A DNA stretch of 63,833 bases, taken from Candidatus Kaiserbacteria bacterium. Its GTDB lineage: Bacteria > Patescibacteriota > Minisyncoccia > Phycocordibacterales > UBA2100. The number at the start of each line of letters is the position of its first letter. The stretch's first letter is position 1. Position numbers and translations under genes: made by a program. Under the pieces are notes generated by a model that saw only the letters and a list, made by a program, of their open reading frames with translations, did not search any database and was not told the DNA's origin. Of the stretch, positions 37,649-62,356 are shown piece by piece. The DNA lies in the NCBI GenBank assembly GCA_021413775.1, contig JAIOPS010000026.1, positions 1-63,833 of the forward strand. Reading direction: 5' to 3'.

Positions 37649-37650
37649 CT

Positions 37651-38895: not shown

Positions 38896-38925
38896 GTGCA
38901 CCACCGGTTTTACTCTTCGCTCTAC

Positions 38926-40035: not shown

Positions 40036-40134
40036 GTCCTTACATAATAGTACGCACGACTGCAATTGCATAGCTGCTCTGTGGATTAAGCCTTGTTCAC
40101 ATGCTGTGCTGCACGGAAATTTCAATAGGTTGCC

Positions 40135-41379: not shown

Positions 41380-41601
41380 ACAGGATTCTACCTACGGACA
41401 AAATCATCGTATCACAGGAGGCACGTGTGCCGGAGTGGCCCGGAACAAGGCATTGAAAGATTGTCTCAGGAGTATACAATTCACACATGGAGGAATCCTC
41501 TCCCAACGAAGCCTCAAGCCAAGACACCGCGAAAAGCGCTCAAACAGAGATCGCTCCCGAAGATATTTTTCACTTCGTTGCGTGCGTTGGCTTTTTTTAG
41601 T

Positions 41602-42966: not shown

Positions 42967-43084
42967 TCGAAATCCAGTATAGCAGAAGTGAAATCCGTAT
43001 CCTTGAGTTCCTTTGCCATCTGACATAGATTGACGGCAGGTCGTACCGGAAACGGACGACAAAAAAGGACGAAAGGAACTCCGC

Positions 43085-44065: not shown

Positions 44066-44091
44066 TGCCGAGACCGGCGCCTACATGAGAA

Positions 44092-44125
44092 GCGGCAGCC
44101 CCTCCCGGGCTGCCGCACTTTTTTT
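44092..44125 (+). terminator. intrinsic terminator
   Basis: 9-bp stem gcggcagcc/ggctgccgc, then acTTTTTTT. Confidence 0.8.
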
Positions 44126-44903: not shown

Positions 44904-44907
44904 ACTC

Positions 44908-46338: not shown

Positions 46339-47982
46339 GTGACAAGACCGGATTATCGTACAGCGACATTCATCGTTATCGCCTGTTGTGCAGCAGCGGT
46401 AATGGCGGCTTTGGCGCTCTCAAACGTAAAGCACAACACTTTTTACGGCGTCAAAGATGCGTTAGCGGACAGCCATATAACCGGCGACGTATACCTTGCC
46501 GGGAGGCACTACGAGGTAAGCGGGTCTACGGTACAGGGTCCGATTGCACCCCTCTCTCCTATCCTGGAGCATGAGGCGCTCAAAGTCATGTACGCTCTCA
46601 CGCTCGCAAAGCGCACACCGGTCTTCGGTCTGGCGGGTGTCAACCCCGATTCGCTCGACGCGGCAACAGCTAAATTGGAGGCGGCGCAAAAGGACCTCAT
46701 CGGTCTGCAGAAGGACGCCGGCAACGCGAAATTAGTGAGGTCCCTCTATCCGATTGTATTTCTTCGCGCTATCTCCGCAGCCGAGCGTGCACGGCTCGAT
46801 TTTATATCATCGGCATCGGATTCAGATGCTGCCCGCTATAACGCGGCTCTCAAAAACGCGGCGCGGGAAGGCGTCATTGCGGCTGATTCTTTCAACAAAG
46901 CATTCGCTGCGGCAATCGGTTCGGCCACATTCCGAATCGGTTCGGCGTCCGGGACACTGACCGGAAAAGGCATGCTTTCTTCCATCGCCGTTATCAGCGA
47001 ACGTATGAAAGAATCATCTGCGGAAATAGACGAGCGCGAGGCATGCATGGACGGGAAGGCCCTCTGCCGGACGAACCTTTCGTTGCCCGACGCTCCGGAG
47101 ATTCCTGTTTTTCTGAACCCGGCCGCCGCAACCACACTCGCGCGGGAAGTTCTCGCGGTGTTTCAGGCTGCCATACCGCCTGCGGAAGGCGAGAATCGTG
47201 TCATAGCACTGTCATCGAGCGTATGCGTTTCGGCACTTGATGCACCGTACTTCTTCTCGCAACTCGCGCCCGTACATGCGGCGTCGGTCCCTTTCCGCTA
47301 CGTAGGCAACATTCTGTTCCTGCGTACTTCAAACGCAAATCAACCGCTCATGCAATACATGAAGAATACGCTCGGGATTACGTACAATATCTCCAACCCT
47401 TTTGTGTATTACATGTGCCCGGAAGTCGGTGACGACCTCGCCCGGCTTCTCAACGTGCAGGCGATAGCACAGTTCGCGTATATGCATCCCGATATCGCGA
47501 TAAAAAAACGTTCGGCCCTCGCGAAAGACGAAATATACGAATCGGACGCTCAGGCGTATTTGAGAGACGCTCTGGCGGAAGCACGCAGCGGCGAAACATC
47601 CCTCCCGCCGGAAGCATCTGCCGAACTGTATGCACTCGCTCTCGCGCAATACGAAAAAGGAACCGGTCTCGACATAGTCATCAAGGGAATAGCGGAAACT
47701 CTGACGAAAGACATTGAAGACTCGCGCAGAGGCGTGCCTTTCCCCTTTCTCACCGATATGAAAATATTATTCACGACACAAAGCCCGTTCCCGTCACTCT
47801 TTCTCGCCCACAACCCGTCGTTCGGCACCTCTCAAATCACGCTGCACGAATCGAACGCAGCCGAGCAGGTCGGATATTTTCGCACATTCCTGCGGTATTC
47901 CGACCTGAAATCAGAAATTCCCCGCGAGTTGTTCGTCCACGACATACGGGAACACGCAATCTTTGAAGGCGCCTCCCTCTGA
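46339..47982 (+). CDS. membrane-anchored hypothetical protein (547 aa), paralogue of 41602-42966
   Basis: GTG start 6 nt after TAGAAT, and an N-terminal TM helix TATFIVIACCAAAVMAALAL. No recognisable domain. Confidence 0.55.
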   Translation: MTRPDYRTATFIVIACCAAAVMAALALSNVKHNTFYGVKDALADSHITGDVYLAGRHYEVSGSTVQGPIAPLSPILEHEALKVMYALTLAKRTPVFGLAGVNPDSLDAATAKLEAAQKDLIGLQKDAGNAKLVRSLYPIVFLRAISAAERARLDFISSASDSDAARYNAALKNAAREGVIAADSFNKAFAAAIGSATFRIGSASGTLTGKGMLSSIAVISERMKESSAEIDEREACMDGKALCRTNLSLPDAPEIPVFLNPAAATTLAREVLAVFQAAIPPAEGENRVIALSSSVCVSALDAPYFFSQLAPVHAASVPFRYVGNILFLRTSNANQPLMQYMKNTLGITYNISNPFVYYMCPEVGDDLARLLNVQAIAQFAYMHPDIAIKKRSALAKDEIYESDAQAYLRDALAEARSGETSLPPEASAELYALALAQYEKGTGLDIVIKGIAETLTKDIEDSRRGVPFPFLTDMKILFTTQSPFPSLFLAHNPSFGTSQITLHESNAAEQVGYFRTFLRYSDLKSEIPRELFVHDIREHAIFEGASL

Positions 47983-47990
47983 CGAAGTTC

Positions 47991-49184
47991 TCATTTGGCG
48001 GCACTCCGCTGCAGTGCATCACACCGGTCTTTGAGAACGCCCGGAAGCGGCCGGCAAAACGCACCAAATTCCCTCTCATCTGTACCGAAAATATAGACTG
48101 AACGGTTCACTATGCCGGAAAGACATTCGGCAGCCAGAGATTCTGTCGGTATCGACTGACAGAACGCCATCGCACCCATAGCGTTTGTGCGGTCCTCTTC
48201 CAGTAGGATTTGTGCGACGGTCACAACGCATGACGATTGCTGGTCTTCCGGGACGTGGAGGCACGCAGAAACCGCTTTCCCCGGCTCAGCTACATATGCC
48301 CTGCCGATGGTGGAGAACTCGATGCCGTAGCAATACTTTCTCTCTGTGACGTCCGGTTCGGCAGCGCAGAGCGCCTCCACACCCGAGCCGCTCAATATTT
48401 CATCTCTGAAAAACGGCCAGCTCTCGCGGATGCAGGCACCGACATACTGTGAGTCCTCAAACGACCGGCAAAATTGTCCTACGGTCGCCTTCGTCGGTTG
48501 CACGGGCAGCTGCTGTATCATCAGGAAATCTTCCGGTTCGCGGGGACGGAATATCTGCATAAAGACTCCGTCGAAACAAAAGTGGCGGAAGTCGGAAGGA
48601 ACGGCCCGTGAACAAATCGAAAGCGCTTTCGGAATATCCGTGTTCGTAATGAAATCGAAAAGGTGACCCAGGCCGTGATAGCACCCTTCTCTGTCCAGGT
48701 CTGAAGGCGACCATTTTGCGGAGTTGCTGCACGCCAGTGAAAATTGCGGAATGAACTTCTCAATCGTCGCATCATCGAGCACTTCGCTTCTGAAGCGCCC
48801 CACGGTAACGCCGTGAACGTATCCGTTCGAGCACACACCTTCCGGCGGCGTCAGGGACAGCATGTCGACCCACTGTGCGGGATCTTCCGCAACGACGCGC
48901 TCGCCTATTTTATGTCCGAGAACATGGCAGAACTGATACGACACATCAAGCGCACGTATCTCGCGTACGACCTCGAAAATCTGTGCCACTGACATTTTCG
49001 GATACAGAGCCGGGACTTCAGCCTCGTAGCATGCGGAATGGTCAATACCGCTTCGAGCGCATGACGCCACAATCAGCCGCGCGACATTTTTTACGGAGCC
49101 CGACGCACGGAAAAACCCTACGGCGGCGGCGCTCACAGCCAGGAGACAGATAACGACAATCCCTATTTTTTTTCCGGAATACAT
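47991..49184 (-). CDS. Cys/His-rich exported paralogue P1 (subtype A)
   Basis: TM anchor IGIVVICLLAVSAAAV. Motifs YQFCHVLGHKIG, CSNGYVHG, CYHGLGHL and CFDGVFMQIF. It is the last gene of the operon. Confidence 0.7.
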   Translation of the reverse strand: MYSGKKIGIVVICLLAVSAAAVGFFRASGSVKNVARLIVASCARSGIDHSACYEAEVPALYPKMSVAQIFEVVREIRALDVSYQFCHVLGHKIGERVVAEDPAQWVDMLSLTPPEGVCSNGYVHGVTVGRFRSEVLDDATIEKFIPQFSLACSNSAKWSPSDLDREGCYHGLGHLFDFITNTDIPKALSICSRAVPSDFRHFCFDGVFMQIFRPREPEDFLMIQQLPVQPTKATVGQFCRSFEDSQYVGACIRESWPFFRDEILSGSGVEALCAAEPDVTERKYCYGIEFSTIGRAYVAEPGKAVSACLHVPEDQQSSCVVTVAQILLEEDRTNAMGAMAFCQSIPTESLAAECLSGIVNRSVYIFGTDEREFGAFCRPLPGVLKDRCDALQRSAAK

Positions 49185-49266
49185 GAATATGCAGCGAGAA
49201 TTATTGCAATCGCACTTCTCTATAGTTCTAGCACACCCGCATGACCGGCGAAGCTCACCTCACCGT

Positions 49267-49803
49267 TTATCGTTTGCGCCCTTTCCAGATGAAAAACGCG
49301 AGCGCCCCCATGAGCGCGCCGCCGAGAAAAATACCGGTGCTCGGCAAAACGCTGCCTCCCGAGCCGGAGGAAGAAATCGAAAACGGGAACGATGCGACGG
49401 CCATATCGTTACCTTCTTTGTCGCGGAAGCTTGCCTCGATTTTGTACGTACCCGCATCCAGAAAGCTATAGAGCAACGTAGTGGGTCCCAGCTGCTGCTG
49501 GCGGATGCCTGTCGCAAGCAGTGTTTTTTCGTTTCGCACGAGGCGCACCCACACGTGGTCGTACGCGGTGATATCGCTGTTCTTCTCCTCGAGCAGCTGG
49601 AAGTCAAAACGCGCGCTGAGGCCGACTTGAAACTCATTCGGGTCATACCCGATATCAATGACGTACGGCGAAGTGGTCGCGGTCCACGACAGTCCGACCA
49701 CGTGCGCCGAGGCGCGTTCGGTAACGCTCAGCAGTGCCCCGCACACTGTAAGGAGAGTGATTGCAAAATATGCGGATGTGCGGACGAGACGACGTTCTGT
49801 CAT
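49267..49803 (-). CDS. LPSTG-anchored surface protein (sortase substrate) with predicted N-terminal His after signal cleavage
   Basis: Signal peptide ...SVTERASA-HVVG. The C-terminus is LPSTG, a hydrophobic helix and KGRKR. ATG 49803 is preferred over GTG 49821. Confidence 0.7.
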   Translation of the reverse strand: MTERRLVRTSAYFAITLLTVCGALLSVTERASAHVVGLSWTATTSPYVIDIGYDPNEFQVGLSARFDFQLLEEKNSDITAYDHVWVRLVRNEKTLLATGIRQQQLGPTTLLYSFLDAGTYKIEASFRDKEGNDMAVASFPFSISSSGSGGSVLPSTGIFLGGALMGALAFFIWKGRKR

Positions 49804-49821
49804 ATGCGGAGTATATCGCAC

Positions 49822-51012
49822 TCACCGCGGCTGTGAACTTCTCCCGCACTGTGAGCGCATATCGGCCGGGAGCGCGGCACAGAATCGCTGTAACTCATCT
49901 GAATTCTGTCCGAAGATAAACGGTGCCTGCATAGTCAGCGTTTCCATACAATTCCGCGCGATGCTGCCGGGGGCACGCGCACACAGAGAAATGGCTTTAC
50001 TTGCATCATTCCTGTTCTCTTCCAAAACAGCCTGGGCTGTCGTTTTGAAACAGAGGTCCTGACGCTCTGACGGCAGTTTCCCGCACGCATCGGCCGCCTT
50101 CGCGGGGTCGCCCAGCGACATCCGCCCGATGATTGCGGTCGCGGATTGGTAACACGCTGTTTCCTCTTCCGCATTCGGCTGTCCGGAGCAGAATGATTCC
50201 ACCCCGGTACCGTCCGTCATTCCGGCATGCAGCGGCCAGCTTTCGCGGAGGCACGCTCCTTCGTACGCGGGATTCGAGCGGAATGCTGCGCAAAATTGCC
50301 GTACAGTATCCGCTGTCGGCTTTACGGGCATTTGTGCGATGAGAGCATAATCGTCCGGCTCGAGCGGCTGATAGATTTGCATAAACACTCCCTCGCGGCA
50401 TACCCGATGGAAATCATCGCTGGTGGTTTCTTCACAAAGGGCCAGGGCTTTTTTCAGGTCGGCATTTGTAATGAAGTCATAGAGGTGTCCCATGCCGTGA
50501 TAGCACATGGCCTTATCCAGATTGCTCGGATTCCACCCGTTATGCGGTTCGCACGCGCGACGGAAATCGGGCAAAAACTTTTGGAGCGTACTGTCATCGA
50601 GAACTTCCGCGCGAAAGCGCCCCCCCACTACTCCGTGAATGTACCCGTTCGAACACAGTCCGTCCGTCGGATTCATCGGTATCGCATCAACCCACCTGTT
50701 CGGGTCCTCGGCGACGACCTTCTCACCTATTTTATGCGCGAGCACATGGCAGAACTGATAGGACGGGTCTTTCTGACGGATGATACGGATGATGTCGAAA
50801 AGCTGCGGTACCGCGACGCCCGGATACAGCGCGGGCACCTCCTTTTCATAACAGGCACTCGGGTCCGTTTGCGTTTTGCACGTCGTCACGATGGCGTTCG
50901 CGCGGGCCTCCAGACTTCCGGTGCCGACGCTCCTCAGAGACCAAAAAGCGAACACCGACATGATGATTGCCAGCGCAGCCAAACCGCCTACGATGTATTT
51001 TTTGTCCGTCAT
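49822..51012 (-). CDS. Cys/His-rich exported paralogue P2 (subtype A)
   Basis: The start ATG overlaps the P3 stop (ATGA 51009-51012). Motifs YQFCHVLAHKIG, CSNGYIHG, CYHGMGHL and CREGVFMQIY. By hand count there are 18 Cys after the anchor. Confidence 0.7.
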   Translation of the reverse strand: MTDKKYIVGGLAALAIIMSVFAFWSLRSVGTGSLEARANAIVTTCKTQTDPSACYEKEVPALYPGVAVPQLFDIIRIIRQKDPSYQFCHVLAHKIGEKVVAEDPNRWVDAIPMNPTDGLCSNGYIHGVVGGRFRAEVLDDSTLQKFLPDFRRACEPHNGWNPSNLDKAMCYHGMGHLYDFITNADLKKALALCEETTSDDFHRVCREGVFMQIYQPLEPDDYALIAQMPVKPTADTVRQFCAAFRSNPAYEGACLRESWPLHAGMTDGTGVESFCSGQPNAEEETACYQSATAIIGRMSLGDPAKAADACGKLPSERQDLCFKTTAQAVLEENRNDASKAISLCARAPGSIARNCMETLTMQAPFIFGQNSDELQRFCAALPADMRSQCGRSSQPR

Positions 51013-52238
51013 GGTGCCTGTATACATGCCTCTTTGTATTGTGCGGGAAACATCCCGCATACCTGTTTTTTCTTGTCCGGTCCGTAAAAACGCGAGAGCC
51101 TCCGGGCCAGGGTATCGTAGCAGATGCTTGTGCCTTCGCGCGCATTCAGCTCCCCGAGTGCGCACATAGGCAAAATCTTCGCGTATTCATTTCCCGGGTC
51201 GCCGTGCTCCATCATCCCGTTTGTAGCGCTGACGATGCACGCCTTGAACAGCGCGTCGTCGGTCACCTTCGTACAATCTTTAAACACGTTCGGATACCCG
51301 TCGAGCGGCGCGAGCCTCTGCATCATCCCCGCGACAATGACGCCGAAGGTCATGTCCCGAATATCTGTCTCCTTGATGCCACCGACGTACTTTGAGGCCG
51401 AAAGCACGTCATCTCCGATAACCGGCTGAAGCTTCTGTCCGAACTCGTAATAACACGCCCAGTGCCATCTTTGAATGAGACCATCACAGTCCTTAAACGG
51501 GTTCTTGAAATCGAATGCGAGTCCGAAGTTCTTTTCTATCATCCAATCCGACATCACGTTGAATACGCCTTCTCTGCATTCTTCCACTTCCTGTTCGGAA
51601 ATGCCCGGAAGCGCTTCGCATTTCTTGAGAGGAGCGTTCACCATCCACGCCACGTCTCCCCACTTGTCTTTCTTGAGAGTATCCGCTACAGATTGAATGA
51701 AACCGTGCCCGCTCGCGTGATAGCAAACCCGTGCGATATCGTGCATGTTCTCCGAAAGACGTCCCCGCAGATACTCGCATGTCTCTTTCACGAAGCTCGG
51801 CTGCGGGTGGTCCTGCGTCATGTGCTCGAGAAAACCGTGAAAAAAGCCGTATCCGCAGGACGTCGTTTCCTGAGGAAAATCCATCTGCGGAAGACTCAGA
51901 CCGTGGGTGACGAAAAATTCATAGTACGCCGTGTCACCAAGGCGATGCGCGTTCACATGGCAGCCCCATGAACCGAAGAGCGGATACGCGTCGTACAGGT
52001 AATCAAAGGCGCGGTACGCAGCGGATACGTCGCCGTTCCTGATGTACTTGAGCGCGATTTGTACGAAACAATTATCCTTATCATCATCGGTGCCGCCCTT
52101 CGATGCGCAGGCGCGGGCTTCAATGCGATTCGTGACACTCTCCACGATACGCGGTCCGCGGATGACGGCTGCAACGGCGAGCACCGCACCGAGCAACGCA
52201 ATCACGAGCACGATATTTCTATGCTTACTGAACCACAT
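51009..52238 (-). CDS. Cys/His-rich exported paralogue P3 (subtype C)
   Basis: TM anchor IVLVIALLGAVLAVAAV. Motifs GCHVNAHRLG, SCGYGFFHGF, VCYHASGHGF and CREGVFNVM. It overlaps the cupredoxin-like gene by 14 nt. Confidence 0.7.
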   Translation of the reverse strand: MWFSKHRNIVLVIALLGAVLAVAAVIRGPRIVESVTNRIEARACASKGGTDDDKDNCFVQIALKYIRNGDVSAAYRAFDYLYDAYPLFGSWGCHVNAHRLGDTAYYEFFVTHGLSLPQMDFPQETTSCGYGFFHGFLEHMTQDHPQPSFVKETCEYLRGRLSENMHDIARVCYHASGHGFIQSVADTLKKDKWGDVAWMVNAPLKKCEALPGISEQEVEECREGVFNVMSDWMIEKNFGLAFDFKNPFKDCDGLIQRWHWACYYEFGQKLQPVIGDDVLSASKYVGGIKETDIRDMTFGVIVAGMMQRLAPLDGYPNVFKDCTKVTDDALFKACIVSATNGMMEHGDPGNEYAKILPMCALGELNAREGTSICYDTLARRLSRFYGPDKKKQVCGMFPAQYKEACIQAP

Positions 52239-52623
52239 GAATAGTGCCCGTATAGTAAGAACGGATATGGTCGTGATACCCCCACCGTCCGATTTTGTCG
52301 AAACGGAATTGCCAGGTGGCATCGGCCGCCACCGGCGCAAGCGGGTCGAACGCGGGATACAACGTGTGATTGGGATGCGGGTCGGACGCCGGCCAGAAAG
52401 GTCTGCCGTTTGTCGTGGAAAAGGTCACTGTGCCGCCCACCCGGATGGTTACATTATTCGGTTCAAACCCTTTGTCCGTCAGCACAACGGTCGCGTGCTC
52501 CTTCACTTCCGTCACCTGCTGTGAAGGCCGGAATACGCCTGTACGCGAAACCAAGAGGACCGTGACTGCTACGACGGCGACTACAAGCATCGCAGGACGG
52601 GAAAATCTCATACGGGCCATCAT
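52225..52623 (-). CDS. membrane-anchored cupredoxin-like protein without the type-1 Cu cysteine
   Basis: TM anchor. VVLTDKGFEPNNVTIRVGGTVTFSTTN fits the cupredoxin beta-sandwich pattern. Conserved WPASDPHPNHTLYP and WGYHDHIRSYYTGTIHVV are present, and the mature part has no Cys. Confidence 0.55.
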   Translation of the reverse strand: MMARMRFSRPAMLVVAVVAVTVLLVSRTGVFRPSQQVTEVKEHATVVLTDKGFEPNNVTIRVGGTVTFSTTNGRPFWPASDPHPNHTLYPAFDPLAPVAADATWQFRFDKIGRWGYHDHIRSYYTGTIHVVQ

Positions 52624-52651
52624 AGCACCCGAGGTCGGCTAGAAAAAAATG

Positions 52652-53659
52652 CTATCGGGCCCCGCAGAGATTCCCGTACGATATCTGACCGGAGGTGCAA
52701 AGCGCACGTAACTGCGCCTTCCCCGCATCACTTTGCAGGAGGTGCTGCAGCGCCTCATGGAGACAGGCATCCCTATCCGGTGCCGTCGGCATGACAGAGC
52801 ACCAATCCCGCATCGTGGCCGATTCGTATCCGCTTCCCGGTCCGATAGTGTTTCCGATACCCCGGAAACACGTGTCTCTGAGCGCGGAATCCGTAATGAC
52901 CGCACAGAGACCTCCGACCACCCGATATTGATCCTTCGTAGACACATCTTTTTCGCCGAGTGACGCTTTCCACCATGACGGAAGCTCGTAATAACACGCA
53001 CCGCGGAACTTTTCCGGTACTTCTGTTGCGCACGGTTCGTTTGCGGCCGAAGCGTCAAAGGGCCGCAGCTTGATGCCGTCCGCGCTTTGCATCGTGTTGT
53101 AGTTGTACTCCATGAATACGCCTCCGTAACATCCGCCGATGGTCTGACCGTTGTTAACGGATGCGCAAGCCTCGAGTGCCTGAGAAAGTTTTTCATTGCC
53201 GAGGTACGCAAGAATACCGTGTCCGATTCCATGAATGCAACCGAACGCAATCATAGAATCGCCTGCTCCGTTGCAGGCGTCACGCAAATCGTTCGTCCCG
53301 CTCAGTCCGCGCGCACTAAGCGCCGCTCCTGCAAACCCGTGATAACAGCCGTATGCGAAATCCTGCGTACATTTCTGGATACCCTGCATGCCGAATTTTT
53401 TGTAGAGAATTCCGCCGATAACGTGCGCCAGTTTATGCGCCTCGTCGTAGGACAGAGGGTTCGCCTCTTTCATAAATTCTCCGTACGCACCGTCGGGCGA
53501 ACGGTCGAAGGCATCTTCCCATTTCTTTTCGAGCTGCTGATACGCGGACAGCGGGCCGGGCTGCTGAACGGTCTTTTGACCACGCGCGTACAGAACACAT
53601 ACGGACAGAACCAGCAGCAGCGCGACTCCTCCGACCAGGTATGCCAGTGACTTTTTCAT
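52652..53659 (-). CDS. Cys/His-rich exported paralogue P4 (subtype B)
   Basis: ATG at 53659. Motifs AHKLAHVIGG, GCYHGFAG, GCIHGIGHG and GGCYGGVFMEYN. Confidence 0.7.
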   Translation of the reverse strand: MKKSLAYLVGGVALLLVLSVCVLYARGQKTVQQPGPLSAYQQLEKKWEDAFDRSPDGAYGEFMKEANPLSYDEAHKLAHVIGGILYKKFGMQGIQKCTQDFAYGCYHGFAGAALSARGLSGTNDLRDACNGAGDSMIAFGCIHGIGHGILAYLGNEKLSQALEACASVNNGQTIGGCYGGVFMEYNYNTMQSADGIKLRPFDASAANEPCATEVPEKFRGACYYELPSWWKASLGEKDVSTKDQYRVVGGLCAVITDSALRDTCFRGIGNTIGPGSGYESATMRDWCSVMPTAPDRDACLHEALQHLLQSDAGKAQLRALCTSGQISYGNLCGAR

Positions 53660-53669
53660 GTGAAGCGGA

Positions 53670-54881
53670 TTAGCGTACTGTGCGGGTCTTTTGGTAACAC
53701 GAGTCATGCCACTCATCCGGTATGGCATCGCACAGCGTCTTTGCCTCTACCGATCCCTGCGGCATCCCTTGTTCCGCGTATGTCACCAGTTCCATCCAGC
53801 ACGATTGTTTCGCTTCCTGCGGCGCGTCGTTGCAGATACCGACTGCCTTCGCGACATTCTTCCAGTCAGCCCACACGAATTTTGAAGCGGTGCGAGCCCA
53901 GCAACTGTTCCGAAAATCCGGGTCGACGATTCCGCGGCAAAACTCCTCTATTTTCGGCACGTCGTAATGCAGCGTCTCGATGACGGGATATATTATCGCG
54001 GACGCGCAGTACAACTCAGCGCTCCTGTCGCTCGAGAGATTGCAGAGCGCTTCCATTATGTGCGGGTCAGTGGAGCTTCCCGGCACATCGGGCCACGATT
54101 CTTTGACGCATGTGTTGTATACGAGCCCCGTAAACTGCGAGCAGAATTTTTTCGTATTCTTCGCCAGGGGCCCCACCTCGTGGACGAGCACCTCATCCTC
54201 AGGTTCGAGCGGTTGATAGAGCTGCATGAAAACTCCCTCATAGCAGGTCTGTCTGAAATCATAATCGGGCAGTTTGGCTATCGCAGCACACAGAGCAACC
54301 GATTTCTTTACGTCTGCCTGCGTCACGTAAAGAAAGAGGTGACCCATGCCGTGCATACAGGACGAACGATCGAGGAGCGTCGGATTCCAAGCGCCCCGCG
54401 GATCACACACTCCCGCGAGCATGCCCTTCATCTCATCGACTGATACCGTGCCAAGGGACTCCAAGCGGAAACGTTCCTGGAATGCCCCGTGGACGGCGCC
54501 GGAACCGCAGATACCCATCGGCGAGCGAACCACAACGTCTTTCCATTTTGACGGGTCCCTCGCCACCTCTTTCGACGTGACGAGATGTGCGAGTACGTGA
54601 CACGATTGGTAACCGGGGTCCAGCTGCTGGATGAGCCGCACAACGGAAAAAGTCCTTTCCATCGACAGTCCTGCATCCATGAGCGTGGGCACATTTTTTT
54701 GATAGCATATCTCCTTCTGCGCCTCGGTTGTAGCCGCTTTGCATGCGGCGACTTCACGATGAGCCACAGCGTTATCGCTTTCAAAGTGTGTAGGCAGGAG
54801 CGAGGGAAAAGCAGCGACGCCGGCCAGCACAAGAGCTACAAGCGCGAGCGCGAGCACAACAGCAATGCGGATTTTTTTCAT
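53670..54881 (-). CDS. Cys/His-rich exported paralogue P5 (subtype A)
   Basis: ATGA overlap with P6 (54878-54881). Motifs YQSCHVLAHL, CGSGAVHG, CMHGMGHL and CYEGVFMQLY. Its closest relative is P7. Confidence 0.7.
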   Translation of the reverse strand: MKKIRIAVVLALALVALVLAGVAAFPSLLPTHFESDNAVAHREVAACKAATTEAQKEICYQKNVPTLMDAGLSMERTFSVVRLIQQLDPGYQSCHVLAHLVTSKEVARDPSKWKDVVVRSPMGICGSGAVHGAFQERFRLESLGTVSVDEMKGMLAGVCDPRGAWNPTLLDRSSCMHGMGHLFLYVTQADVKKSVALCAAIAKLPDYDFRQTCYEGVFMQLYQPLEPEDEVLVHEVGPLAKNTKKFCSQFTGLVYNTCVKESWPDVPGSSTDPHIMEALCNLSSDRSAELYCASAIIYPVIETLHYDVPKIEEFCRGIVDPDFRNSCWARTASKFVWADWKNVAKAVGICNDAPQEAKQSCWMELVTYAEQGMPQGSVEAKTLCDAIPDEWHDSCYQKTRTVR

Positions 54882-56068
54882 ACGTCGCATTGGGATTTTC
54901 TATACTTCTCCGGTATCTGCCCGCAAACGGTATGCAACACATCGGGTTCGAAATAGTATTCGGACAAAAGCTGAATCGTCGCGTAGCACGAGTCGCGTAA
55001 TCCGGCGGGAAACGTTTCTGCGCTGCAAAGATTCTCGGCTTCGATGTACTGTTTTCCCGGCGAGCCGAACTCGAAAATACCTCCGACAAGACCACTGACG
55101 CAGCTGTCTCGCAGTTCGGCGGTGGGCAATTCACATACGCGAACCTGCTCCGGCTGGAGTTGCTTTTGATCCCATTTGAGAATTTGTATATAGAACGAGA
55201 CGGCTTCGTGAATGGCGAGTGCCCGGTACTTTTGGTTCGTTATCGTATTGCCGAACGCGACCATGCCTTTTAAGTCATGGTTGGCGAGAGCTGCGGCCTG
55301 TGTATTCATTTGGTCGTAACACGTTTCCGTCTCAAGAGGTGTGAAGCCGCCCACGCGACAAAGCGCGTACGGGTCAGTCCCGGAGTCGAGTTTGTACTTC
55401 GGATTCGGATACATATTACCGATGGCGTTGAAAACACCCGACACGCACCGCATGTGCCACGTTTCATTGCCTGCCGAGACTTTGTCGCAGACAGCCAACC
55501 CCGGTTTCGCTATCGCGACCGCGTCGCCCCACAATCGCGGGTCGGTTCCGTCGGTTATACCGTGGCCGATGCCGTGATAGCACGAGCCTTCCGCGAATTC
55601 AGGCGGCGGCGGGTGCGGGACATTCTTACCGACATACGTGCAGAACGCGCGAGCAACCTCCATGTCGTTCGTGTCCACATACAGCGCATCCATGAAGCCG
55701 TGATAGAAGCCGTATCCGCAGTACGACGCCTTGCTCGTGAGTTCAGTCTTCCCTGTTTTCTGAAATTCCTCGTACGCGGCCTTTCCCAGTTCGTGCGTGA
55801 CATCGTGACACGTACCCGCAAACCCGGGGTCCGTATCATACGCAAGTGCAAGCGCGTCAAATGCCGCAGAAATCCCCTTCGCGCGCAACAGGTTCTCTAT
55901 CTCCGTTGCATAACAGAGAGGTTTGTTCCCGGCGCTCGCGCAGATTTCCAGAACACGTGCAGGATTTTCGCGCGAGATGAATGTATGCGCGACGATGCCC
56001 GCGAGCGCGAACATGGCGCATAAGAGAAAGCCGACAATAGAAAGCTTGAAATAGCGTGAACTCATCAT
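54878..56068 (-). CDS. Cys/His-rich exported paralogue P6 (subtype C)
   Basis: ATGA overlap with P7 (56065-56068). Motifs TCHDVTHELG, YCGYGFYHGF, SCYHGIGHG and CVSGVFNAI. Confidence 0.7.
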   Translation of the reverse strand: MMSSRYFKLSIVGFLLCAMFALAGIVAHTFISRENPARVLEICASAGNKPLCYATEIENLLRAKGISAAFDALALAYDTDPGFAGTCHDVTHELGKAAYEEFQKTGKTELTSKASYCGYGFYHGFMDALYVDTNDMEVARAFCTYVGKNVPHPPPPEFAEGSCYHGIGHGITDGTDPRLWGDAVAIAKPGLAVCDKVSAGNETWHMRCVSGVFNAIGNMYPNPKYKLDSGTDPYALCRVGGFTPLETETCYDQMNTQAAALANHDLKGMVAFGNTITNQKYRALAIHEAVSFYIQILKWDQKQLQPEQVRVCELPTAELRDSCVSGLVGGIFEFGSPGKQYIEAENLCSAETFPAGLRDSCYATIQLLSEYYFEPDVLHTVCGQIPEKYRKSQCDV

Positions 56069-57285
56069 AGCGTAGTATGTGTATTCGTAAGACACGTCGA
56101 ACGCCACTTCTCCGGCATCCCGCCGCACAACGCTTTGGTCTGAGGAGAATCGGGCTTCATTCCCTGCTCCGCATATCCTGAAAGTTCTTTCCAACAGGCA
56201 TCAGCGGACGGCGGTGAATCCGAGCACACAGCAATTGCTTGGGGTACGTTTTTCCAATCAGTCTCGACGAACCGGACGGCCGTACGCGAGACGCAGATGT
56301 CACGGACTGACGGATCAGGAAGCTGTGAACAGAGCGAGAGCATAGACTTTGCATCATATTCTTTCATCCCCATGACAACAAATACGAGTCCCCGTACGCA
56401 GTTGTCGTACCCGTCTTTACCTTTAAGCGGTGCGCACACGGCGTCGAAACCTTCCGGAGTCATAATATGCTCCTTTTCAACAGGCCAGCTCTCTTTGATA
56501 CACGTCTCAAACGCGAGTCCGGGATATTGGCTGCAAAATTTCACCCTGTCTTTCGATGCGGACGTTAATTTGGCAACAAGACCGATATCCTCGGGTTCGA
56601 GCGGCTGATAAATCTGCATGAAAACTCCCTCCTCGCAGGTCTCGACGAAATCAGCGACCGGCGCTTTCCCTTTCCCCAACACCTCGCAAAGCGCAATGGA
56701 TTTCGAGATGTTCGCATCCGTGATGTAAACGAGCAAGTGCCCCATGCCGTGCATGCAACTCGAACGCTCTATCAGGGTCGGCGACCAACCTTCACGGGGG
56801 TCGCACGCACCGGCGATAAGATTCCGCACTTCCTCAACAGACGCATTCGGCAAGGACGTCGAACGGAAGCGCTCCTGGAAAGCACCGTGCAGGGCGCCGT
56901 TTCCGCACATTCCTGCGGGCACGCGTGCGATGATATCTTTCCATTTCGACGGATCCTTTGCCGTCTCTTTCGCGGATATGAGGTGCGCCAATACGTGGCA
57001 GTAGTGATACGTGGGGTCAAGCTCCTGGACAATCGCGGTCACGGCATACGCACGCTCCATCGAAAGACCCTTGTCCATGAGCGCGGGAACTGATTTTTCG
57101 TAACATAAATCTCTGCTCGAGCCCTTTTCTTTCGCGCACGCCGTCACTATGTCCGCTGCTATCTTTGCGTCGCTCCGCATGCTTCCGGGTAAACGTGCCA
57201 GCAAAATCCAAGCGAGGAGCACTCCGATAAGCACGAGCGCTCCGACGATAATAAGCATGCGGTATGTCTTTCGTACGTACATCAT
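56065..57285 (-). CDS. Cys/His-rich exported paralogue P7 (subtype A)
   Basis: ATGA overlap with P8 (57282-57285). Motifs YHYCHVLAHL, CGNGALHG, CMHGMGHL and CEEGVFMQIY. Confidence 0.7.
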   Translation of the reverse strand: MMYVRKTYRMLIIVGALVLIGVLLAWILLARLPGSMRSDAKIAADIVTACAKEKGSSRDLCYEKSVPALMDKGLSMERAYAVTAIVQELDPTYHYCHVLAHLISAKETAKDPSKWKDIIARVPAGMCGNGALHGAFQERFRSTSLPNASVEEVRNLIAGACDPREGWSPTLIERSSCMHGMGHLLVYITDANISKSIALCEVLGKGKAPVADFVETCEEGVFMQIYQPLEPEDIGLVAKLTSASKDRVKFCSQYPGLAFETCIKESWPVEKEHIMTPEGFDAVCAPLKGKDGYDNCVRGLVFVVMGMKEYDAKSMLSLCSQLPDPSVRDICVSRTAVRFVETDWKNVPQAIAVCSDSPPSADACWKELSGYAEQGMKPDSPQTKALCGGMPEKWRSTCLTNTHTTL

Positions 57286-58295
57286 TGAATAGCAAAAAAA
57301 TACTCTTTCAGGCATGTCGAGGATTCGGAAGCATTGAGGCCTTTGGTACAGACGCCTTCCGCCTTATCCCGAGTGACAGGGTCGGCATAGAATGCCCACG
57401 CGAGCCCCTCTCGACACCACAGGCGCGCGTTTCCTGTCGCCGCGTTGTCACAAAACACTTCTCCCGCATCGGCATTGAAATGCGTCTCAGGAATGATGCC
57501 GTATCCGAGCCCGCGGTAACATGCGACCCGGAGACGGGATTCCGCGACAGCGGCGCAAAATCCTCCGAGCTTCTGCGGCAAAGCGGAATCGAACGGAAGC
57601 GCGGTCGCCCACCATGCGGGCAGGCCGAAGTAACATGCTTCCGGATACAAACTCAGCGAAGGGCACGGCTCGTACACATTCCCAGCATCAAACGGACGGT
57701 AGCGCTTCGTCGCATCTTTTTCCATGACACGGAAGTTGTACTCCATAAATACTCCGTCCGCACATCCTCCAATCGGCTTTTTCCAGGAAAGAGTCGCGCA
57801 TAAGGATAGAGATTTTTCTACATCCTGAATGCCGTATCCGTAGTACGAGAGCAGGCCGTGCCCGATGCCGTGAAAACATCCTGTGCCATCCGGGCCGTAG
57901 ATAGTGACACATGTGGCATCGAGAACTTTCACAACATCCGGACCGTGCTCTGCAATCGCGCGCCCGAGAAAGCTATGGTAGCAACCAAATCCGAAGCTTC
58001 CGTCACAGACCGTAAAGCCCTTGATGCCCTCGTGCTCGTAGAGAACCTCGCCGAAAATATGAGCGGATGTGTGCTGGTCGACGGCGGAAAGCTTTGCATT
58101 CTCGTTTTTAAACATCCCGAACGCTTCCGCAGCGGAGCGGCCGGCAAACAAAGATTCCATGTGAGCCCGTTCGTCGGAAAAAGCGCCGGAGTCGGTACCC
58201 GCTTTTTCACCACGTGCAGACAACAAAATCGCTGCCGATGCAGCGAGAATCACAATAAGTGCGAGCGCCGAAACGACAATGCGGACTCGGCTCAT
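57282..58295 (-). CDS. Cys/His-rich exported paralogue P8 (subtype B)
   Basis: ATGA overlap with P9 (58292-58295). Motifs HTSAHIFGE, GCYHSFLG, GCFHGIGHG and GGCADGVFMEYN. Confidence 0.7.
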   Translation of the reverse strand: MSRVRIVVSALALIVILAASAAILLSARGEKAGTDSGAFSDERAHMESLFAGRSAAEAFGMFKNENAKLSAVDQHTSAHIFGEVLYEHEGIKGFTVCDGSFGFGCYHSFLGRAIAEHGPDVVKVLDATCVTIYGPDGTGCFHGIGHGLLSYYGYGIQDVEKSLSLCATLSWKKPIGGCADGVFMEYNFRVMEKDATKRYRPFDAGNVYEPCPSLSLYPEACYFGLPAWWATALPFDSALPQKLGGFCAAVAESRLRVACYRGLGYGIIPETHFNADAGEVFCDNAATGNARLWCREGLAWAFYADPVTRDKAEGVCTKGLNASESSTCLKEYFFAIQ

Positions 58296-59515
58296 AACGA
58301 GAGCTTCGTTCTGCAGGCAGACTGATACTCTCCAGGTACCTGCGCGCAGAAAGCCGCGGCAGGATTACTCTTCGGGGCAACGTAATGTGAAGCCTCTTCG
58401 AAGAGTGCCTGAAAGCATGCCGGACGTTCAGCAGAGTCGGCACTACCGCAAAAGCGAATCGCCGCTTTCGAGTCGTTCTCACCTCCCCAAAAGAGAGACG
58501 CGACAATCGACTGTTCGCATGCATCATAGGCTTCTTTGTGAGGAGCCAGTGCGCACCATTCTCGCATTTGGTTCAGCTGCTGGTCAGTCGCGTCCGCAAT
58601 CGAACGGATATCACGCATCATCGCAAGCACGGGAAACTCCTTGCCGATGCCGCCGAAGCAGGCCTGACGCAGTTCGGGAGTGTCTTTCGAAAGACGGTCG
58701 CAGTATGTAAATGCTTTTGCGAAATGTTCCGGTTTGGGAATATCGAGATTCGCTCCCGCGGCTTCGAAGAGGTGCGGTGTGATATACACGTAACACAAAC
58801 CCTTCGCGTCGGACGGAATGACACTCGTTGAGCATGGCGCAAGCGGATCCTTCGGGTCGTAGTATTTTTCGCGCGCCTTGAGCCACAAATTACGGTCATG
58901 ACCTCCGCCGCCCATCAGTTCCATAATCGCGCCTCCCACACACTGCACATACTCATCGTTGTGATACTGCGCCGTACCGGTCTTGCGGCAAAAGTCGACT
59001 GTCTTCGCGAGATCGTATCCGTAGAAAGCAAAGACGCCGTGGCCGAGTCCGTGATAGCACATTGTGTATGCGCCGGAGCCGCCGGGAGCCTTGCGGCACG
59101 CGTCGTTGATAAGAGAGAGCGCTTTTGTGCCGCCGTATTCATTCAGCGTGCCGATGACGATTGCGTGCGAACAGGCATTCCTGAAATCCTGGGTACAGTC
59201 GGCAATACCGTCGACTCCTTTTTGTTTGTACAGCTCATCCCCCACCGTGTGACCGAGGAGGTGCAAGTCTGTATTCGGCGGAAGCTGCGCCCTGCCGAGA
59301 ACTGCATAGGCGTACACCGCACCTTTTTTTTGCGCGAGTGCCGCGAAGCGATCCGAAAGTTCCTGGAAATTTCGCGCATCCGCTCCGATAGTTTCCGCCT
59401 CAGGGTATGAGCCGCCGGAAGTGGTGCGGGCGAAGAGCGCGATAAGACCTCCTACAAGAACGAGGAGCGTCACTCCAATAACAACCGGTACGTTCAGATG
59501 AGGTACACGTTTCAT
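58292..59515 (-). CDS. Cys/His-rich exported paralogue P9 (subtype B-like)
   Basis: TM anchor VVIGVTLLVLVGGLIALF. Motifs HLLGHTVGD, ACSHAIV, MCYHGLGHG and CVGGAIMEL. Confidence 0.7.
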   Translation of the reverse strand: MKRVPHLNVPVVIGVTLLVLVGGLIALFARTTSGGSYPEAETIGADARNFQELSDRFAALAQKKGAVYAYAVLGRAQLPPNTDLHLLGHTVGDELYKQKGVDGIADCTQDFRNACSHAIVIGTLNEYGGTKALSLINDACRKAPGGSGAYTMCYHGLGHGVFAFYGYDLAKTVDFCRKTGTAQYHNDEYVQCVGGAIMELMGGGGHDRNLWLKAREKYYDPKDPLAPCSTSVIPSDAKGLCYVYITPHLFEAAGANLDIPKPEHFAKAFTYCDRLSKDTPELRQACFGGIGKEFPVLAMMRDIRSIADATDQQLNQMREWCALAPHKEAYDACEQSIVASLFWGGENDSKAAIRFCGSADSAERPACFQALFEEASHYVAPKSNPAAAFCAQVPGEYQSACRTKLSL

Positions 59516-59538: not shown

Positions 59539-60627
59539 TCACCTGAACAAGAAATGGTACAGACGTTGAATGAGAGGAATATTTGAGGGCGTTGTCGGCT
59601 CCACGCTGAAACCAAGAACGTCGGGCAGACTTCCGAAGCCGGGTGTCGAACGCGTCGAGAAATAGGAGGTATACCCCTCCGGGAAAAGGTACTCGCCCTT
59701 ATTAACAAGTTGCCCGGGACCTTTTTCGACTTCCGGCACAATCGGATTCGCCAGAATGTAGGCGTCATGACGGATTCCCGTTACCTGCCACGAGACTTTC
59801 CCGTTGGCAGCACCTCCACCGATCGTGAACTCGTTATTTTTTTCTTCCACTTTTACATAGAGATTCGGCATCGGTGCACCGAGAGGCTTGAGCTGGTATC
59901 GCACCTCAGTATTCAACGCGTCAAAATATGAGGGGAGCTCCACAATCGCCTCACCTTTTTTATCAAGCCGCACAATACCGTCGTAGACGTTTTTCGCGTC
60001 GGGTGACTCGACGAACGAGTGGTACAGGAGTTTGTTCTTGGGGTCCTGCGGGTGGTCAATAACGAACGTACCCGAGCCTTTGGATATAGAACCGGTGACG
60101 GCAAAATTTCCTGTCACGCTCACGTTTTTAGTAAATGTCGTCTGGTACGAACCCTGGTAGTACGCCTGGGCGTAGCCGTAGTAATAGCCCTGGGCGTAGC
60201 CGTAGTAATAGCCCTGGGCGTAGCCGTAGTAGTAACATTGTGCGTAGCCGTAGTAGTAACCTTGTGCGTAGTAATAGCCCTGGGCGTAGCCGTAGTAGTA
60301 ACCTTGTGCGTAGCCGTAGTAGTAACCTTGCGCGTAGGCGTAGCCGTAGTAATAACCTTGCGCGTAGCCGTAGTAATAGCCCTGAGCGTAGCCGTAGCCG
60401 TAGTAATAGCCCTGGCCGTAGTAATAGCCCTGGGCGTAGCCGTAGCCGTAGTAATATCCCTGGCCGTAGCCGTAGTAATATCCCTGGCCGTAGCCGTAGT
60501 AATATCCCTGGCCGTAGCCGTAACCCGCGTACGCGGTACCGGGTGTGAGGAGCACCACATACACAATGATTCCTGCGAGTACTGACAGGAAAGCGCCGTA
60601 CGTCCATGCTTTCTGCTGAAGGTTCAT
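59539..60627 (-). CDS. exported protein: 127-aa Gly/Tyr repeat plus 'HSFVESPD' domain (paralogue D3)
   Basis: ATGA overlap with D2 (60624-60627) and a TM/signal segment. The region contains about 15 (GY)(G/A)QGYYY-type units (6-11 aa, mostly 8 aa), then SKGSGTFVIDHPQDPKNKLLYHSFVESPDAKNVYDG...GKVSWQVTGIRHD. Confidence 0.7.
   Translation of the reverse strand: MNLQQKAWTYGAFLSVLAGIIVYVVLLTPGTAYAGYGYGQGYYYGYGQGYYYGYGQGYYYGYGYAQGYYYGQGYYYGYGYAQGYYYGYAQGYYYGYAYAQGYYYGYAQGYYYGYAQGYYYAQGYYYGYAQCYYYGYAQGYYYGYAQGYYYGYAQAYYQGSYQTTFTKNVSVTGNFAVTGSISKGSGTFVIDHPQDPKNKLLYHSFVESPDAKNVYDGIVRLDKKGEAIVELPSYFDALNTEVRYQLKPLGAPMPNLYVKVEEKNNEFTIGGGAANGKVSWQVTGIRHDAYILANPIVPEVEKGPGQLVNKGEYLFPEGYTSYFSTRSTPGFGSLPDVLGFSVEPTTPSNIPLIQRLYHFLFR
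60145..60525 (-). repeat. in-frame tandem repeat (mostly 24-nt units, with 18-33-nt variants) encoding GYAQGYYY/GYGQGYYY
   Basis: Repeated gcgtagccgtagtaatagccctgg-type units on the plus strand. The encoded region is about 50% Tyr. Confidence 0.9.
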
Positions 60628-61172
60628 TTGCATAAAGGCTCGAAGAGGCACGTGCCGACGTTTACTTCCTGACCGGGACCTTTTGGCACTTCGACAATGA
60701 CAGGATGCTTCAAAATGTACGGGTCATGGCGGATACCTGTTATTTGCCATGAGACTTTTCCACCCGGAGTACCTCCTCCTATGACGAAGCTGCTATTCTT
60801 CTCTTCGGTTTTTATATACAGATTTGGCATTGCGCTGTCGAGTGCGGAAAACTGATATCGTGAATCTCTGTTCAGCGCATCATAGTATGCAGGCAGCTGT
60901 ATGACAGTTTCTCCCTGTGCGTCCAAAACTGCAATACCGTCGTAGATGTTTTTCACGTCCGGCGACTCGACGAACGAGTGGTAGAGAATTTTGTTTGCCG
61001 GATTTATCGGATCGTCGATTGCGAATGTTCCCGAACCTTTCGAGAGTGTTCCCGTAATCGCGAGATTGCCCAGGAATCTCACACCGCCTGTAAGGGTGAC
61101 GGCGAATGCAGCGGCCGGCACAAGTACTGCGAGAGTAAGGAGACCGACAATGAGTGAAGATTTATTGCGCAT
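60624..61172 (-). CDS. exported 'HSFVESPD' domain protein (paralogue D2)
   Basis: ATG at 61172 (MRNKSSLIVGLLTLAVLVPAAAFA), then SKGSGTFAIDDPINPANKILYHSFVESPDVKNIYDG...GKVSWQITGIRHD. Confidence 0.65.
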   Translation of the reverse strand: MRNKSSLIVGLLTLAVLVPAAAFAVTLTGGVRFLGNLAITGTLSKGSGTFAIDDPINPANKILYHSFVESPDVKNIYDGIAVLDAQGETVIQLPAYYDALNRDSRYQFSALDSAMPNLYIKTEEKNSSFVIGGGTPGGKVSWQITGIRHDPYILKHPVIVEVPKGPGQEVNVGTCLFEPLCK

Positions 61173-61779: not shown

Positions 61780-61873
61780 AGGCTGAAAAGCGGAGAATGG
61801 AACCGCTGTGAAGCAGACATCGTGTCAAACGACTTTTGCGAAGAAAAGCCCGTGGGATATACTCCCTACATCT

Positions 61874-62356
61874 ATGCGGACCTACTGGATTATCGGAATT
61901 GTCGCGGCAGCTGTCCTCTTAGCCGGAGGCGGATACATATATAGTGAACGTCCGCATGTACCTTCATATGCCTCGCCCGCAGCACAGCCCCCCGGCCACG
62001 GCATCGTCGGTAATTCTAAGCTTGATACGGACCCTTACGATGTCCTCATAACGTACACCGACGAGGGATTTTCCCCCGCTGACATTTCCATTGCACAGGG
62101 TCAGCGCGTGCGATTCCTTAATAACTCAAAGCAAACGACATGGCCGGCATCGGGTCTCCACCCGACGCACACGCTCTACCCCGAAAAAGAATCCTCCGAT
62201 TGTTTGGGGAGCTCATTCGATTCGTGCGCTGAATTGCAGAAGGGTGAATTTTTTGACTTCACATTTAACTATGCCGGTGTTTGGACATTCCACGACCACC
62301 TGCACCCCTACTCGACCGGCTCCATTACGGTCACCGCATCCTCGACGCAGCAATAA
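61874..62356 (+). CDS. membrane-anchored cupredoxin-like protein, paralogue of 52225-52623
   Basis: ATG at 61874 (MRTYWIIGIVAAAVLLAGGG). Motifs VLITYTDEGFSPADISIAQGQRVRFLNN, WPASGLHPTHTLYP and WTFHDHLHPYSTGSITV. Confidence 0.55.
   Translation: MRTYWIIGIVAAAVLLAGGGYIYSERPHVPSYASPAAQPPGHGIVGNSKLDTDPYDVLITYTDEGFSPADISIAQGQRVRFLNNSKQTTWPASGLHPTHTLYPEKESSDCLGSSFDSCAELQKGEFFDFTFNYAGVWTFHDHLHPYSTGSITVTASSTQQ

Follow-up and report, generated by a model that had tools for sequence, protein, structure and literature searches.

Nine tandem paralogues of a cysteine- and histidine-rich, predicted alpha-solenoid family in a Candidatus Kaiserbacteria genome: a candidate extracytoplasmic metal-binding module

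The nine-gene array and its protein family

Patescibacteria have tiny genomes of about 0.6-1 Mb, and their surface biology is largely unknown. A stretch of 63,833 nucleotides from Candidatus Kaiserbacteria bacterium (assembly GCA_021413775.1, contig JAIOPS010000026.1, positions 1 to 63,833 of the forward strand), hereafter the window, was analyzed here. The minus strand of the window from position 47991 to 59515 is tiled by nine paralogous open reading frames (ORFs), designated G1 to G9, which encode 335-409 amino acids (aa) with the most plausible starts. The nine copies of this single unannotated family take up about 11.5 kb, which would be more than 1% of a genome of this size. The initial annotation assigned the whole span to the nine paralogues. 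All nine are indeed present, but the span also holds two small genes of other kinds, coding for an immunoglobulin (Ig)-like protein, named NHis here, and for a cupredoxin-like protein, named Cup (Table 1). With the most plausible starts, 4-nt overlaps of stop and start codons were found at 51009-51012, 54878-54881, 56065-56068, 57282-57285, and 58292-58295. Since most of the successive genes overlap by 4 nt, the array is read as one translationally coupled operon of 11 genes.

Each of the nine proteins begins with a short basic N-terminus followed by a hydrophobic 19-residue window (Kyte-Doolittle value 2.15-3.11). This verifies the previously proposed single N-terminal transmembrane anchor in all nine, and it fits an N-in/C-out orientation with an extracytoplasmic ectodomain. 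Long antisense ORFs of 150-290 aa were noticed opposite the real genes (49183-49836, 50227-51087, 53087-53650, 55277-56023 on the plus strand, and others). They have no homologues of their own in this analysis and look like by-products of a coding strand with 55% G+C.

Table 1 Coordinates and properties of the array genes and of a second cupredoxin-like gene in the window.
Feature	Coordinates	Strand	Description
G1	47991..49184	(-)	Predicted solenoid, subtype A, 397 aa; transmembrane anchor at residues 7-25; all motifs; AlphaFold2 model all-alpha, pLDDT 94
G1 residues 86-210, putative His-cluster core	48555..48929	(-)	H87, H91, H124, H170, H174, M209; four successive Gly-rich helices; lowest-entropy regions of the family
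NHis	49267..49803	(-)	178 aa; signal peptide, predicted Ig-like beta-sandwich starting from invariant His at the predicted mature N-terminus, C-terminal transmembrane anchor
G2	49822..51012	(-)	Predicted solenoid, subtype A, 396 aa; identical to database protein P0001
G3	51009..52238	(-)	Predicted solenoid, subtype C, 409 aa; directly downstream of Cup, the split form of a common Cup-solenoid fusion
Cup	52225..52623	(-)	132 aa, membrane-anchored, cupredoxin-like; invariant H83, H86, D93, H117, H119; D118 97%; no Cys ligand
G4	52652..53659	(-)	Predicted solenoid, subtype B, 335 aa; ORF, alignment, transmembrane anchor, motifs
G5	53670..54881	(-)	Predicted solenoid, subtype A*, 403 aa; alternative ORF start 54890
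G6	54878..56068	(-)	Predicted solenoid, subtype C, 396 aa; ORF, alignment, transmembrane anchor, motifs
G7	56065..57285	(-)	Predicted solenoid, subtype A*, 406 aa; ORF, alignment, transmembrane anchor, motifs
G8	57282..58295	(-)	Predicted solenoid, subtype B8, 337 aa; ORF, alignment, transmembrane anchor, motifs
G9	58292..59515	(-)	Predicted solenoid, subtype B9, 407 aa; first gene of the operon
Second cupredoxin-like gene	61808..62356	(+)	182 aa; His/Asp type like Cup; 2.3 kb past the array; Pfam Cupredoxin_1 E 1.5e-5; same jackhmmer family as Cup

The proteins were compared with known families by sequence and by structure. When all nine were scanned against Pfam and NCBIfam at E ≤ 1, nothing beyond noise came out, and a profile of the nine found no match among PDB sequences at E ≤ 10. 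When the structural model of G1 described below was searched against the PDB by Foldseek, no match was obtained at E ≤ 1e-3; the best matches (E 0.07, TM score ≤ 0.29) were generic HEAT/ARM/TPR/PPR solenoids, which indicates an alpha-solenoid without a specific relative. The initial annotation had proposed a new family, and this comparison, set beforehand, revealed no existing family in Pfam, NCBIfam, the PDB sequence profile search or Foldseek. No prior description of the solenoid family was found in searches of the literature, and the homologues are labelled hypothetical in all named sources. Two specific leads were also rejected. A LanC-like protein, suggested by the CHG and GxxG motifs, had no Pfam match, and no LanC-type structure was among the best 50 Foldseek matches; the phospholipase C/P1-nuclease Zn3 fold had no Foldseek match.

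The family is large, previously unannotated, and centred on Patescibacteria. With clustering at 50% identity, its profile retrieved 7,243 representatives at E ≤ 1e-3, and 2,084 at the stricter E ≤ 1e-30; the named members belong to Kaiserbacteria, Paceibacterota, Minisyncoccia, and other Patescibacteria. When species-representative genomes were scanned, 79 loci were found, nearly all in Patescibacteria. In 84 loci there are 417 family ORFs, which almost always stand in tandem, 2-11 genes to an array and as many as 11 within 21 kb. The loci were fetched with a subtype-A-rich alignment (A2), as no stretch of the nine-paralogue alignment was conserved enough, so the counts of A-containing arrays are biased toward this subtype.

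Pairwise identity was 46% for G1/G2, 47% for G5/G7, 31-34% between subtypes A and A*, 25-33% among G4, G8, and G9, 25% for G3/G6, and about 17-22% for the other pairs. These values reproduce the three subtypes that had been proposed: A (G1 and G2, with G5 and G7 as A*), B (G4, G8, and G9), and C (G3 and G6). The array order B9, B8 ... A recurs: of 83 loci, 37 have B8 directly after B9, and no array is commoner than 'B9 B8 A'. From the close pairs G1/G2 and G5/G7, duplication followed by divergence had been suggested; the divergence is ancient and orthologous across Paceibacteria, with no local duplication burst. A recent lineage-specific expansion or a set of variable antigens was rejected, as distant lineages keep both the subtypes and the order in which they stand. 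The paralogues thus appear to be ancient and non-redundant. They are probably also physically associated, because the gene order is conserved and because B9 and B8 are fused elsewhere in a single chain (P0085), in the same order as genes G9 and G8.

Helical repeats, cysteine pairs, and the histidine cluster

AlphaFold2 was used to predict the structure of G1 from a 64-sequence alignment. The model contains 23 helices, with a mean predicted local distance difference test (pLDDT) of 94.0 and a predicted TM score (pTM) of 0.89. From residue 239 onward, Cys pairs recur every 34-35 residues, and these units are similar to each other (hhalign 84-96%). The model and the self-similarity of the profile together confirm the helical-repeat architecture put forward initially. 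The ectodomain is a predicted alpha-solenoid of about ten helical hairpins of 34-35 residues.

The tandem Cys-pair modules are real and above chance. The module C-x2-3-[LIVM]-P-x6-8-C occurs 13 times in the nine proteins, compared with 0.375 expected from 1000 residue shuffles, in which the maximum was 3. A Cys with a partner 9-13 residues downstream was counted 52 times, against 27.7 +/- 4.7 in the shuffles. The number of Cys per ectodomain had been given as 14-18 by hand count. The total per protein is 14-19.

Covariation of the Cys columns was then measured as phi. Values of 0.97 for residues 86-118, 0.91 for 42-52, 0.91 for 273-285, 0.88 for 377-388, 0.83 for 342-354, and 0.64 for 308-319 were obtained, and subtype B carries another Cys pair in place of 86-118. 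The Cys counts per domain are overwhelmingly even, at 14, 16, 18, or 20. On the predicted helices, each Cys pair connects two consecutive helices, from the end of the first to the initial turns of the second. The paired gain and loss (phi 0.83-0.97 for five pairs and 0.64 for the sixth) and the strong excess of even counts favor the disulfide-clamped hairpins of the earlier proposal. Nearly every hairpin would be stapled by one disulfide, since Cys are gained and lost in pairs and the topology is extracytoplasmic. For the Cys residues beside the HxxxH motifs, a role in disulfides is more likely than one in metal binding.

Four motifs had been described in the N-terminal half: an HxxxH motif (M1), a Cys- and His-containing motif ending in GxxH (M2), a C-x-H-[GA]-x-G-H core (M3), and a CxxG motif (M4). 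Regular expressions verified that M1, M3, and M4 are common to all nine proteins. For M2, all nine match one of two forms; the M2 Cys sits elsewhere in subtype B, within the alternative Cys pair. In the MAFFT alignment of the nine, with G1 numbering, H87, H91, H124, C152, C168, H170, G173, H174, C191, C203, and G206 are invariant, and so are C239, C251, C319, C342, and C354. In M1 the first His is followed by V, L, T, K, or D, and in M3 by G or A. This confirms that the motif is not the HExxH of zincins; the catalytic Glu after the first His is lacking, and no peptidase family was matched in Pfam. A zincin metalloprotease was thus rejected.

Conservation was further measured over 696 non-identical domains of the family. 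The values were 99.4% for H87, 99.0% for H91, 98.9% for H124, and 98.7% for both H170 and H174, while G173 reached 100% and C168, C191, C203, C239, and C251 about 100%. Retention of the motif residues in homologues had been fixed beforehand as a test of the family, and each of the five His was found to be kept. M209 is conserved at 82% and is replaced by Asn in subtype C. The full set of five His is present in 679 of the 696 domains. Among the 17 exceptions, nine lack at least two of the His and six lack three to five. Independent loss would predict fewer than one domain with multiple losses, compared with the nine observed. The losses therefore cluster in the same rare sequences beyond independent expectation, which indicates that the five His behave as one unit.

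The positions of these residues follow the repeats. H91, H124, H174, and M209 occupy an equivalent position, +5 or +6 from the motif-starting Cys, in four successive repeats; H87 is at +1 and H170 at +2. Gly, Ala, or Ser residues lie on either side of every His of the cluster. Hydrophobic moments are 0.19-0.65 for the helices that bear the His (86-100, 117-131, 162-179, and 197-212), compared with 1.3-1.5 for the alternating helices, and these low values suggest that the His helices form the inner layer. Such a register is the pattern expected of a single site spanning adjacent repeats, as far as can be judged from the aligned sequences. A mean-field direct-coupling analysis on the same 696 domains was aimed at contacts between the helices near the His. 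Its highest-ranking pairs were scattered and the Cys pairs were not recovered; the result was discarded as noise because of the subfamily structure.

Partner proteins, fusions, and a candidate metal-binding function

Cup is, by sequence, a real relative of the cupredoxins. The protein matched Pfam Cupredoxin_1 at E 0.002, and the profile of its family aligned to amicyanin at E 1.3e-7 over 94 positions, with D118 placed on the type-1 Cys ligand. Pfam PF13473 was matched in about half of the Cup homologues, with a best E of 1.1e-18 in fusion proteins. In the alignment of 31 Cup sequences, H83, H86, D93, H117, and H119 are invariant and D118 is conserved at 97%. The amicyanin alignment showed that the type-1 His-Cys-His-Met set is absent, with no His or Met at the ligand-loop positions and no conserved Cys. 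Cup cannot be a blue-copper electron carrier, because the type-1 Cys is replaced by Asp and the other loop ligands are absent. The HPxH and YHDH motifs of Cup presumably recall the HxH motifs of multicopper oxidases.

Many members of the Cup family (P0296, P0312, and others) are labelled 'plastocyanin' by JGI. This label, and any electron-carrier role drawn from it, is doubtful for the Cup family since the Cys ligand is missing. Plastocyanin-annotated proteins were invoked as electron carriers in a recent study on bacteria from the Candidate Phyla Radiation (CPR) (PMC12931201); these may or may not be of the Cup type.

Cup and the solenoids are closely linked. There are 118 Cup ORFs in 60 of the 84 loci, and 106 of these are within 200 bp of a family gene. 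Single chains composed of a transmembrane segment, Cup, and a solenoid account for 72 of 419 family ORFs; one of them, in locus L073, carries the subtype-C motif pattern. The window carries the split version, with a separate Cup directly upstream of G3. Cupredoxin_1 was found in 10 of 27 multidomain representatives, and GH3, Wzy_C, and FG-GAP were found once each. In one chain (P0164), NHis and a weak cupredoxin match are combined with two solenoids.

Some chains have as many as seven solenoid copies. The giant chains P0121 (3,580 aa), P0122, P0125, P0126, P0128, and P0152 have 3-7 solenoid domains each, after which P0121 continues with a GH3 glycosidase domain and LRV/HEAT repeats. P0214 is the member fused to the Wzy_C domain.

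NHis is the commonest neighbour of the arrays, present in 51 of 84 loci at a median distance of 15 bp. The Ala|His junction after the signal-like hydrophobic segment is invariant in 25 of 25 homologues, so that the mature N-terminus is predicted to be His, with the cleavage itself deduced from this junction. The 25 homologues also share a DIGY motif and a C-terminal transmembrane helix. AlphaFold predicted an Ig-like beta-sandwich (pLDDT 88.7). Foldseek of this model found the Helicobacter pylori copper-resistance protein CrdA (E 2e-3, TM score 0.63-0.69), and RhoGDI, macroglobulin, and FN3 domains scored equally well. Against Pfam at E ≤ 1, only the weak Ig-like matches Y_Y_Y and Big_3_5 were obtained, and neither CopC (PF04234) nor DUF1775 (PF07987) was matched; NCBIfam named neither NHis nor Cup. 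The N-terminal His suggests a predicted site similar to the histidine brace of CopC or YcnI.

The reading that we favor, at even odds, is that the solenoids are a new extracytoplasmic metal-binding module, probably for copper, which works together with Cup and NHis. H87, H91, H124, H170, H174, and usually M209, contributed by repeats 2-5 on the Gly-rich inner faces of the helices, would together make up a single site for a metal or cofactor, with copper as the most probable occupant. The solenoids would work with two small partners from the same operon, the Cys-less His/Asp cupredoxin-like domain, often N-terminal to subtype-C solenoids, and the Ig-like NHis. The diverged subtypes B9, B8, C, and A probably act together as a hetero-assembly at the cell surface rather than as redundant copies, because of their great age, their stable gene order, and the occasional fusion of subtypes in a single chain. 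The function may be the capture, relay, or storage of copper or another metal, or a copper-dependent redox reaction at the envelope. The initial annotation had ascribed Cu or Zn coordination to both the HxxxH pairs and the adjacent Cys. The His part gains independent support from the cupredoxin-like fusions and adjacency and from the N-terminal-His protein, but the adjacent Cys are probably disulfide partners. Two known proteins, COA7 (PMC8892353) and YcnI (10.1101/2021.06.11.448128), both described further below, serve as precedents for the favored reading.

Several points weigh against this reading. That the five His cluster and that the paired Cys are close together is deduced from covariation, from the periodicity of the helices, and from the register of the sequence. 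A His cluster could hold Zn, Ni, Fe, or haem as well. Cup lacks the canonical Cys and Met copper ligands, and cupredoxin folds without such ligands can be metal-free. NHis matches no CopC or DUF1775 model in Pfam, and most of its fold matches are generic Ig-like domains. The recurrent array neighbours include no copper transporter or chaperone of the CopA, CopZ, Sco, or CopD type. The single GH3, Wzy_C, and FG-GAP fusions would fit a role in envelope glycans equally.

A more far-reaching version of the metal-binding reading, to which we give a small chance, is that the solenoids, Cup, and NHis constitute an all-histidine-ligated multicopper surface machine, either an oxidase/oxygenase or a copper relay. 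Its active site may lie between the solenoid His cluster and the HxH motifs of the cupredoxin. If so, it would represent a class of copper enzymes with no relation to multicopper oxidases, lytic polysaccharide monooxygenases (LPMOs), or particulate methane monooxygenase (pMMO), and would provide minimal episymbionts with extracellular redox or scavenging chemistry.

The solenoids could instead be metal-free scaffolds of the TPR/Sel1 type that bind proteins or ligands for host attachment or envelope organization, with the His serving as a structural or ligand-recognition patch. The fold neighbours are generic scaffolds only, and the C-terminal repeats are variable except for the Cys. CPR bacteria are episymbionts with many surface proteins, and Ig-like surface proteins are among the neighbouring genes. 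However, five His kept at about 99% across paralogues of about 20% identity, and lost together, are typical of a chemical site and not of packing. The fusion to the His/Asp cupredoxin-like domain is systematic, and the subtypes are ancient and syntenic instead of rapidly diversifying. We regard a metal-free scaffold as unlikely.

It is improbable, in our estimate, that the His/Met cluster binds haem or another tetrapyrrole in a COA7-like redox factor, such as one that reduces disulfides or relays electrons for the small proteins encoded nearby. M209, conserved as given above, lies one repeat past H174, and the Gly or Ala flanking every His leaves room for a flat cofactor. The precedent is COA7, a disulfide-tethered alpha/alpha solenoid that binds haem via His/Met and serves copper chaperones (PMC8892353). 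COA7, HcpB, and HcpC were, however, not among the best 50 Foldseek matches, and no Sel1 match was found in Pfam. M209 is Asn in subtype C, and two axial ligands suffice for haem whereas five His are present here. To our knowledge, CPR bacteria generally lack haem synthesis, which also weighs against haem.

An extracytoplasmic enzyme acting on envelope or host glycans or on peptidoglycan, with the His as acid/base residues or as ligands of a catalytic Zn and with copper uninvolved, is still harder to support, and we consider it quite improbable. The single fusions to GH3 (P0121), Wzy_C, and FG-GAP, together with an SLT_2 lytic transglycosylase near one array, point in this direction; each such fusion occurred once, compared with 10 of 27 for the cupredoxin. 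No similarity of the domain to a hydrolase or lyase family or fold was found in Pfam, NCBIfam, the PDB profile search, or Foldseek, and no acidic residue is conserved along with the His cluster.

That the Cys are themselves the metal ligands, in Csp-like Cu(I)-thiolate storage or in Zn or Fe-S sites without disulfides, would account for 14-19 Cys per helical protein in a copper-associated gene context, but it is very improbable given an extracytoplasmic domain, no CxxC or CxxxC runs, and Cys strictly paired at 10-16 residues across the hairpin turns, with pairwise gain and loss and dominant even counts; Csp-like Cu(I) storage was rejected on Cys spacing and pairing.

The metal-binding module would matter for several reasons. 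With its thousands of members, the family has been passed down as an ordered array in many Paceibacteria lineages, and the surrounding housekeeping region is conserved. Should the His cluster prove to bind metal, the solenoids would be a new extracytoplasmic metalloprotein family, and the solenoid, the Cys-less cupredoxin, and the N-terminal-His protein would be a new three-part system, which could explain how episymbionts acquire or use copper at their surface. The solenoid family merits a Pfam/DUF entry; expression and metal analysis are feasible with its ectodomains.

Genomic neighbourhood and comparison with known systems

The window is ordinary chromosome, with genes for ThrRS, PheRS, S2, EF-Ts, RF, GyrB, and the pentose-phosphate pathway. 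The same housekeeping neighbours recur in other genomes, which indicates a conserved core locus; a mobile island was rejected on the same grounds.

Other genes recur beside the arrays. The 547-aa product of 46339-47982 (+), which adjoins the array, has an N-terminal transmembrane segment and no Pfam or NCBIfam match, and its homologues flank arrays in 26 of 84 loci. On the other side, 59539-60651, 60624-61205, and 61162-61767 on the minus strand encode three tandem exported paralogues with Tyr/Gly-rich repeats ('GYGQGYYYGY...'), longest in the first. The trio shares a conserved C-terminal domain with the motif '...GSGTFVIDHP.DP.NK.L.HSFVESPD.KN.YDG...' and no Pfam or NCBIfam match, and 52 ORFs of this family lie close to the arrays of 23 of the 84 loci. 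At 31655-34749, a multi-pass membrane protein of 636 aa whose C-terminal tail is helical-repeat-like (32839-34749) stands together with a Bact_surface_Ig-like protein (31655-32821); in other genomes, too, both genes are seen near arrays. Some arrays also have nearby a His-rich exported protein, about 330-360 aa long and without a Pfam match (L065, 2901-3983 on the minus strand, with homologues in 6 loci), which carries the motifs 'HTHEVSD', 'HHIVLF', and 'AHTHPADGG'.

The cluster at 35880-46017 contains weakly AMP-ligase-like genes (PaaK/F390-synthetase-like; 44124-44945 and 44908-46017), and ligase-like genes are near arrays in 22 loci. The same cluster includes a FAD-binding monooxygenase-like gene (40135-41379), solute-binding genes of the DctP type (38926-40125) and TctC type (35880-36857), and several unannotated ORFs.

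The solenoid family and its partners were compared with known systems. Csp copper-storage proteins are four-helix bundles in which Cys line the core and bind Cu(I). The solenoid family is similarly Cys-rich, helical, and linked to copper. It differs from Csp in its 23-helix model, in Cys paired across hairpin loops, and in its location outside the cytoplasm, and no sequence or fold match to Csp was found.

NHis resembles CopC/PcoC/CrdA and YcnI as a small predicted beta-sandwich with an invariant His at the predicted mature N-terminus. YcnI also has a C-terminal transmembrane helix, as NHis does. Unlike CopC and YcnI, NHis has no second invariant His and no permease of the CopD/YcnJ type nearby, and it is partnered by a solenoid family, which is absent from the known systems. 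In YcnI, Cu(II) is bound by a mono-histidine brace (10.1101/2021.06.11.448128).

Cup is related in sequence to amicyanin and plastocyanin; it shares PF13473 with them and keeps the first type-1 His position (H83). In contrast to both, it has Asp in place of the type-1 Cys and lacks the loop Met and the second His, and it carries the invariant H86, H117, H119, and D93 instead.

The closest architectural parallel is with HcpB, HcpC, and COA7, which are likewise built of alpha/alpha hairpin repeats of about 30-36 residues in a solenoid, placed in an oxidizing compartment; one disulfide per repeat is predicted for the family as well. The resemblance to Hcp/Sel1 proteins noted in the initial annotation thus holds for the architecture, but not for homology searches, in which no Sel1 or TPR match (Pfam at E ≤ 1, NCBIfam) and no Hcp or COA7 structure among the best 50 Foldseek matches were found. 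The Cys spacing is 8-11 residues in COA7 and 10-16 residues in the solenoid family (PMC8892353). Unlike Hcp and COA7, the solenoid family has an invariant five-His cluster, an N-terminal anchor, tandem diverged paralogues, and cupredoxin fusions.

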